This document shows positions 49,603 through 50,035 of a stretch of DNA of 64,000 bases, piece by piece (the stretch's first letter is position 1; each line of letters begins with the position of its first letter). The notes under the pieces are model-generated. The model was given only the letters and a program-made list of their open reading frames with translations, ran no database searches and was not told where the DNA came from. Both the position numbers and the translations under genes were made by a program. Source of the stretch: Escherichia coli. GTDB lineage: Bacteria > Pseudomonadota > Gammaproteobacteria > Enterobacterales > Enterobacteriaceae. The stretch lies in assembly GCF_003334355.1 (NCBI RefSeq), contig NZ_QOWP01000023.1, one strand, 5' to 3'.

Positions 49603-49614
49603 TTATCTCGCCGA

Positions 49615-49772
49615 ATACCGTGTCGGATGCGGCGTGAACGCCTTATCCGACCTACAAAACCTGCACGTTAGCCCTTCGTAGGCCAGATAAGACGCGCCCG
49701 CGTCGCATCTGGCATCTGCACCCAAATACCGTGTCGGATGCGGCGTGAACGCCTTATCCGACCTACAAAACT
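49615..49772. repeat. REP/BIME elements, including a ~45-bp direct duplication
   Basis: ataccgtgtcggatgcggcgtgaacgccttatccgacctacaaaac occurs twice (49613 and 49727). Confidence 0.7.
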
Positions 49773-49841
49773 ACCAAACCTGCACGTTAGTTTCCTGATG
49801 GACATTTTTCCAGCAATTACACCTCCGGCGATAATTAACTA

Positions 49842-49869
49842 TTGACGAAAAGCTGAAAACCACTAGAAT
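49842..49869 (+). promoter_or_regulatory. sigma70 promoter of the tRNA-Leu operon (leuV promoter)
   Basis: TTGACG (-35), 16-bp spacer, TAGAAT (-10), then GC-rich discriminator gcgcc; about 40 bp upstream of the tRNA. Confidence 0.7.
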
Positions 49870-49910
49870 GCGCCTCCGTGGTAGCAATTCTTTTTAAGAA
49901 TTGATGGTAT

Positions 49911-49997
49911 GCGAAGGTGGCGGAATTGGTAGACGCGCTAGCTTCAGGTGTTAGTGTCCTTACGGACGTGGGGGTTCAAGTCCCCCCCCTCGCACCA
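49911..49997 (+). tRNA. leuV: tRNA-Leu (anticodon CAG)
   Basis: 87-nt sequence GCGAAGGTGGCGGAATTGGTAGACGCGCTAGCTTCAGGTGTTAGTGTCCTTACGGACGTGGGGGTTCAAGTCCCCCCCCTCGCACCA; cloverleaf with long variable arm, anticodon loop UUCAGGU, encoded CCA. Confidence 0.97.
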
Positions 49998-50035
49998 ATT
50001 ATCTTTACTTCCTTTCTTGTTTCTTCCTTGATTTT

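Follow-up and report, generated by a model that had tools for sequence, protein, structure and literature searches.

The 64-kb stretch of DNA analyzed here (hereafter the window) contains a single tRNA gene, identified by ARAGORN as an 87-nt tRNA-Leu with anticodon CAG (Table 1). Its predicted product folds into a cloverleaf with a long variable arm, as is characteristic of the bacterial tRNA-Leu isoacceptor 1, and it scores 48.5 bits against the Rfam tRNA family RF00005 (gathering score 29). The gene, whose CCA end is encoded, is identical to Escherichia coli K-12 leuQ and leuV at 87/87 nt and differs from K-12 leuP at one position, having C48 instead of T48. It lies within the 433-bp interval between the end of rsmC (49602) and the start of the yjjZ stop codon (50036), 38 bp from the latter, and is transcribed away from rsmC. 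The gene order holD-rsmC-tRNA-yjjZ-fhuF-bglJ is constant in 19/19 compared genomes, placing the gene at the orthologous locus between rsmC and yjjZ-fhuF. A first-pass annotation of this DNA had reported one tRNA-Leu(CAG) gene, a strong promoter upstream and a 38-bp distance to the 3′ end of yjjZ, all of which our sequence analysis bears out.

Table 1. Features of the tRNA-Leu(CAG) locus and its neighbors in the window.
Feature	Position	Strand	Evidence or remark
rsmC, 16S rRNA m2G1207 methyltransferase gene	48571..49602	+	343-aa ORF; position and annotation as in K-12 and 18 other genomes; upstream neighbor
REP/BIME cluster, rsmC-tRNA spacer	49603..49800	.	Direct repeat family; Rfam naRNA4 match
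Predicted sigma-70 promoter of leucine tRNA operon	49842..49869	+	TTGACG, 16 nt, TAGAAT; 10/12 matches
tRNA-Leu(CAG), leuQ/leuV hybrid	49911..49997	+	ARAGORN; Rfam tRNA; identity to K-12 leuQ/leuV
Unstructured 38-bp trailer, putative region of Rho-dependent termination	49998..50035	+	Same sequence as after K-12 leuV
yjjZ (DUF1435 protein), convergent downstream neighbor	50036..50272	-	ORF; yjjZ annotated at same position in every compared genome
fhuF (siderophore-iron reductase), synteny marker	50413..51201	+	262-aa ORF; annotations in compared genomes

The top promoter-like site of the interval consists of TTGACG (49842-49847) and TAGAAT (49864-49869), with the GC-rich discriminator GCGCCTCC 3′ of TAGAAT. 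From this site to the tRNA, the window is identical to the region upstream of K-12 leuQ, and from its identity with the K-12 operon promoter we infer that TTGACG-16-TAGAAT functions in the same way here. By sequence, the gene has the operon's own promoter and leader, followed by the trailer of leuV. We found no intrinsic terminator on the + strand after the tRNA, in agreement with earlier work that recognized nothing resembling a Rho-independent terminator past leuV and inferred Rho-dependent termination there (PMC2190699). In K-12, maturation of the leuQPV transcript involves RNase P cutting the 5′ end and exonucleases trimming the 3′ end (PMC2190699).

We compared this arrangement with that of K-12 MG1655 across the rsmC-fhuF interval. 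There, three tandem tRNA-Leu(CAG) genes (b4370-b4368) occupy the same position, in the transcription order leuQ-28 nt-leuP-34 nt-leuV. In sequence leuQ equals leuV, and leuP carries a T for C at tRNA position 48. The first-pass annotation was therefore right to expect a three-gene tandem operon in the reference, though it gave the order as leuV-leuP-leuQ. Relative to K-12, the window shows a scarless loss of exactly 236 bp (87+28+87+34), which takes out spacer 1, leuP and spacer 2 and leaves one gene in place of three. The upstream flank of leuQ, the downstream flank of leuV and the leuQ/leuV-type C48 are all retained, and the promoter, leader, tRNA and trailer are identical between the two; the window additionally has an extra REP/BIME unit upstream that K-12 lacks. 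Neither inter-tRNA spacer (AAAACCACGTTGATATTGCTCGCACTGG, AACGAGGCGATATCAAAAAAAGTAAGATGACTGT) occurs in the 64-kb window, even with 4 errors allowed. The window locus is thus a deletion allele of the leuQPV operon rather than its canonical form of three genes with 28-nt and 34-nt spacers: one repeat unit and the intervening DNA are gone, no scar remains and the flanks are hybrid.

Two complete genomes are particularly close to the window in this region. KCTC 2571, which has three copies, is the closest complete genome over 20 kb (99.7% identity) and is base-for-base identical to window positions 47476-54508 save for the 236-bp indel. LH10-b-1, which has one copy, differs from the window between 46604 and 51570 only by a REP-unit indel and one SNP; over the 351-bp tRNA locus its identity is 100%, with 0 differences in 2,324 flank columns.

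A single gene in the window could also be an assembly artefact, in which three copies are really present and an assembler using short k-mers skipped the loop of spacer 1, leuP and spacer 2 between leuQ and leuV. Three collapsed copies would yield the same consensus, C48 as the majority base included, and the nearest complete relative, KCTC 2571, indeed combines three copies with a 7-kb haplotype identical to that of the window. Furthermore, no complete RefSeq genome matches the window at 100% over 20 kb, as is compatible with a draft source. Several observations make such a collapse unlikely. First, 425 complete genomes carry this allele (described below), including LH10-b-1 with its identical local haplotype. 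Second, a comparably hard exact repeat of 85 nt, whose copies at 41549 and 41852 are 303 bp apart within a 101-bp REP array, has as many copies here as in the complete genomes KCTC 2571 and LH10-b-1, to both of which the stretch aligns gap-free; correct resolution of this repeat argues against collapse at the tRNA locus. Finally, no Ns occur in the window. An 87-nt repeat is resolved by any k-mer or read exceeding that length. The first-pass annotation had offered collapse and recombination between tandem copies as possible readings, and it is recombination that the exact, scarless 236-bp loss, the hybrid flanks, C48 and the recurrence of the allele in 425 complete genomes support.

To count copies at the locus across the species, we searched 5,426 complete RefSeq E. 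coli genomes with two queries. The junction query comprised the two inter-tRNA junctions only, with tRNA arms too short to seed an alignment alone. The single-copy query was the 351-bp locus of the window, used at E ≤ 1e-120, a threshold reachable only by a contiguous flank-tRNA-flank alignment. At least one junction was found in 4,999/5,426 genomes and both junctions in 4,950, with the spacers at ≥95% identity; 427 genomes had none. The single-copy query aligned in one piece and without gaps in 425 genomes, so that the two approaches agree (427 versus 425). Accordingly, the locus holds three (or more) copies in ~4,950 complete genomes (91%), two in ~49 and one in 425-427 (~8%). The first-pass annotation had treated one copy as an unusual state, which is overstated given this frequency and the presence of the single gene in the O157:H7 reference Sakai. 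A plain 901-bp query was dropped, as it left an ambiguous class of 501 genomes at ≥80% coverage, owing to joined pieces in some two-copy genomes. Over the whole genome, the number of tRNA-Leu(CAG) places has a median of 4 among the 5,426 genomes, with a minimum of 1 and a maximum of 10 (one genome each). Among plasmid-labelled records, leuQPV junctions occur at 2 places and the single-copy locus at 1 place.

We estimated the haplotype make-up of the single-copy class from 60 evenly spaced entries of the 425 matches. In this sample, 42/60 carried an O157:H7-type haplotype, which scales to ~300 genomes. This leaves ~125 non-O157 single-copy genomes (of ~5,100), distributed over about ten flank haplotypes and including LH10-b-1, ST648, several AVS strains, PapRG-06-5, AR202.2, GF130 and GF131. 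In the O157:H7 Sakai reference (NC_002695.2), leuQ is the only gene annotated at the locus (ECs_R0127). The one-gene structure and the deletion end points are the same in O157:H7, in the non-O157 genomes and in the window. Two-copy alleles (e.g. Z1323CEC0018, CFSAN004176) are present in both kinds, keeping either spacer 2 or spacer 1. These appear to arise at the same locus by the same kind of recombination between neighboring tRNA repeats, but unlike the window they are left with two genes and one spacer.

We next compared the flanks of 19 fetched loci over 2,324 ungapped columns. Four single-copy lineages each pair with a three-copy genome of identical or near-identical flanks: the window and LH10-b-1 with KCTC 2571 (0 differences), O157:H7 Sakai and Balcarce with O55:H7 DEC5D (3 differences), AVS0343 with GN05056 (0 differences) and AR202.2 with DETEC-P61 (5 differences). 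By contrast, these single-copy lineages differ from one another at 46-94 of the columns. This pairing of single-copy with three-copy genomes implies that the deletion arose repeatedly, and the flanks point to at least four independent events, probably more. The O157:H7 allele, whose flank haplotype shows 46 differences from that of the window, has an origin of its own, from an O55:H7-like three-copy ancestor. The single-copy allele is therefore a real and recurrent natural polymorphism, rare in most lineages and fixed in O157:H7, and the homoplasy of the leuQPV deletion makes it a poor phylogenetic marker.

The three-copy arrays also vary among strains. Tandem copies carry C,T,C at tRNA position 48 in K-12, C,C,C in O55:H7 DEC5D and T,T,C in YZLc1-3; this C/T variation indicates gene conversion between the copies. 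The leuP-leuV spacer is 33 nt rather than 34 nt in some strains through a change in the length of an A-run.

Taken as a whole, we consider it highly probable that a precise deletion of 236 bp left the leuQPV operon with one gene in place of three. Recombination or slippage that joins two direct repeats removes one of them together with the intervening DNA. At leuQPV, the substrates would be leuQ and leuV, identical 87-bp direct repeats whose starts are 236 bp apart. Either unequal homologous recombination or slippage during replication would remove one of these repeats along with spacer 1, leuP and spacer 2. The product would be a single hybrid gene with the operon promoter and leuV trailer unchanged. 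As a repeat-mediated deletion, it may have arisen either by a RecA-dependent pathway or by slippage.

With no change in promoter, leader, tRNA or trailer, the remaining gene should be made and matured as in K-12: the tRNA itself is intact and is presumably expressed from the same strong promoter. RNase P would not be needed for separating cistrons in a single-gene transcript. The sole consequence we expect is a lower gene dosage of the CUG decoder. K-12 has four CAG genes, leuP, leuQ, leuV and leuT (PMC8510543), so if the leuT located elsewhere is single, the strain from which the window derives would have two in total instead of four. A total of two such genes might slightly affect CUG decoding or the maximal growth rate.

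O157:H7 differs from this arrangement in possessing a second, duplicated leuT elsewhere in the genome. In O157:H7 PV15-279, leuT is present twice in tandem within the argX-hisR-leuT-proM operon (2270-2932 of the fetched locus). The two copies are separated by a 139-nt spacer containing a chimera, in which the 5′ portion of proM passes into the 3′ end of hisR at the T-arm sequence GGTTCGAATCC that both share. This arrangement is a 226-bp tandem duplication, in which the proM/hisR chimera is without PGAP annotation. The duplication junction is present in 288/5,426 complete genomes, all sampled ones being O157:H7-like, and it accounts for an excess of ~276 tRNA-Leu(CAG) places in our census. With one leuQPV gene and two leuT genes, O157:H7 has 3 CAG genes rather than 2.

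Selection could add to the main explanation if a lower leuQPV dosage were advantageous in some niches. The loss is recurrent and has become fixed in O157:H7 (~300 genomes), a lineage that rearranged its other CAG locus too. Outside O157:H7, however, the deletion is rare (~125 of ~5,100 genomes) and occurs at scattered tips, as would be consistent with recurrent mutation under drift or weak purifying selection, and three copies are kept in 91% of genomes. We thus regard a selected deletion as improbable. One specific version, on which we would place very little weight, is that recurrent loss of leuP and leuV reflects selection for a lower dosage of a very highly expressed operon oriented head-on to replication. 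In that case, O157:H7 would have shifted dosage from one locus to the other, losing two copies at leuQPV and gaining one through the 226-bp tandem duplication within argX-hisR-leuT-proM, a co-directional operon.

As for the direction of change, three copies are ancestral, given that one pair of spacers is conserved in 4,950 genomes and in all distant flank lineages sampled. The reverse, in which a single copy is ancestral and the three-gene operon was amplified in other lineages, is a formal possibility only and is effectively refuted: both spacers are ≥95% identical in those 4,950 genomes, three-copy arrays with the same spacers occur in lineages as distant as K-12, O55:H7, IAI39, NC101 and GN05056, one-copy tips are nested within three-copy clades at 0-5 flank differences, and independent amplifications could not re-create identical 28-nt and 34-nt spacers.

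Changes in tRNA gene number through gain or loss of repeated DNA are seen in other systems. The glyV/W/X/Y array of E. coli has three or four copies (PMC4539685), and in Pseudomonas fluorescens SBW25 spontaneous large-scale tandem duplications raise tRNA gene copy number (PMC10954465). Both involve other tRNAs, and the change in the window is a contraction; the SBW25 events, furthermore, are large-scale duplications rather than unit-sized changes inside an array. The allele described here is ordinary strain-to-strain variation at a redundant tandem tRNA array. Among the papers available for full-text search, none explicitly describes leuQPV copy-number polymorphism. Nevertheless, the single-copy state is already known, in the sense that public reference genomes such as O157:H7 Sakai contain it in annotated form, rather than through a description that could be cited. 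One, two and three genes are all natural at leuQPV, which calls for caution in annotation and in comparative tRNA counts.

Upstream of the tRNA promoter, the REP/BIME cluster that follows rsmC is itself variable. It includes a duplicated unit of ~111 bp, visible as 50-nt copies at 49611-49660 and 49722-49771. This duplication is shared with KCTC 2571 and absent from K-12 (one unit), O157:H7 and LH10-b-1. The Rfam match to naRNA4, a REP-derived family, spans 49681-49763 on the - strand (70.3 bits) and is probably a generic REP match rather than a specific sRNA gene. A second array, at 41500-41990 between the yjjW and yjjV orthologues, consists of roughly five 101-bp units in tandem, which share 92-98% identity and are related to REP sequences at 23957-24104 and 49621-49766. 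Beyond such REP/BIME arrays, we found no long repeats or IS elements in the 64-kb window, including IS1, of the kind that would have pointed to a long-read assembly; bglJ, which carries an IS1A insertion in LH10-b-1, is free of it in the window. On a larger scale, the window appears to be colinear with the K-12 chromosome through the coordinate origin of the latter, as judged from ORF sizes and positions and K-12 gene order, with 38000-62000 checked against annotated genomes. It runs from putative dnaK (1456-3372, - strand) and thrA (12736-15198, - strand) on through deoC, rsmC and lgoT, apparently in the K-12 order.
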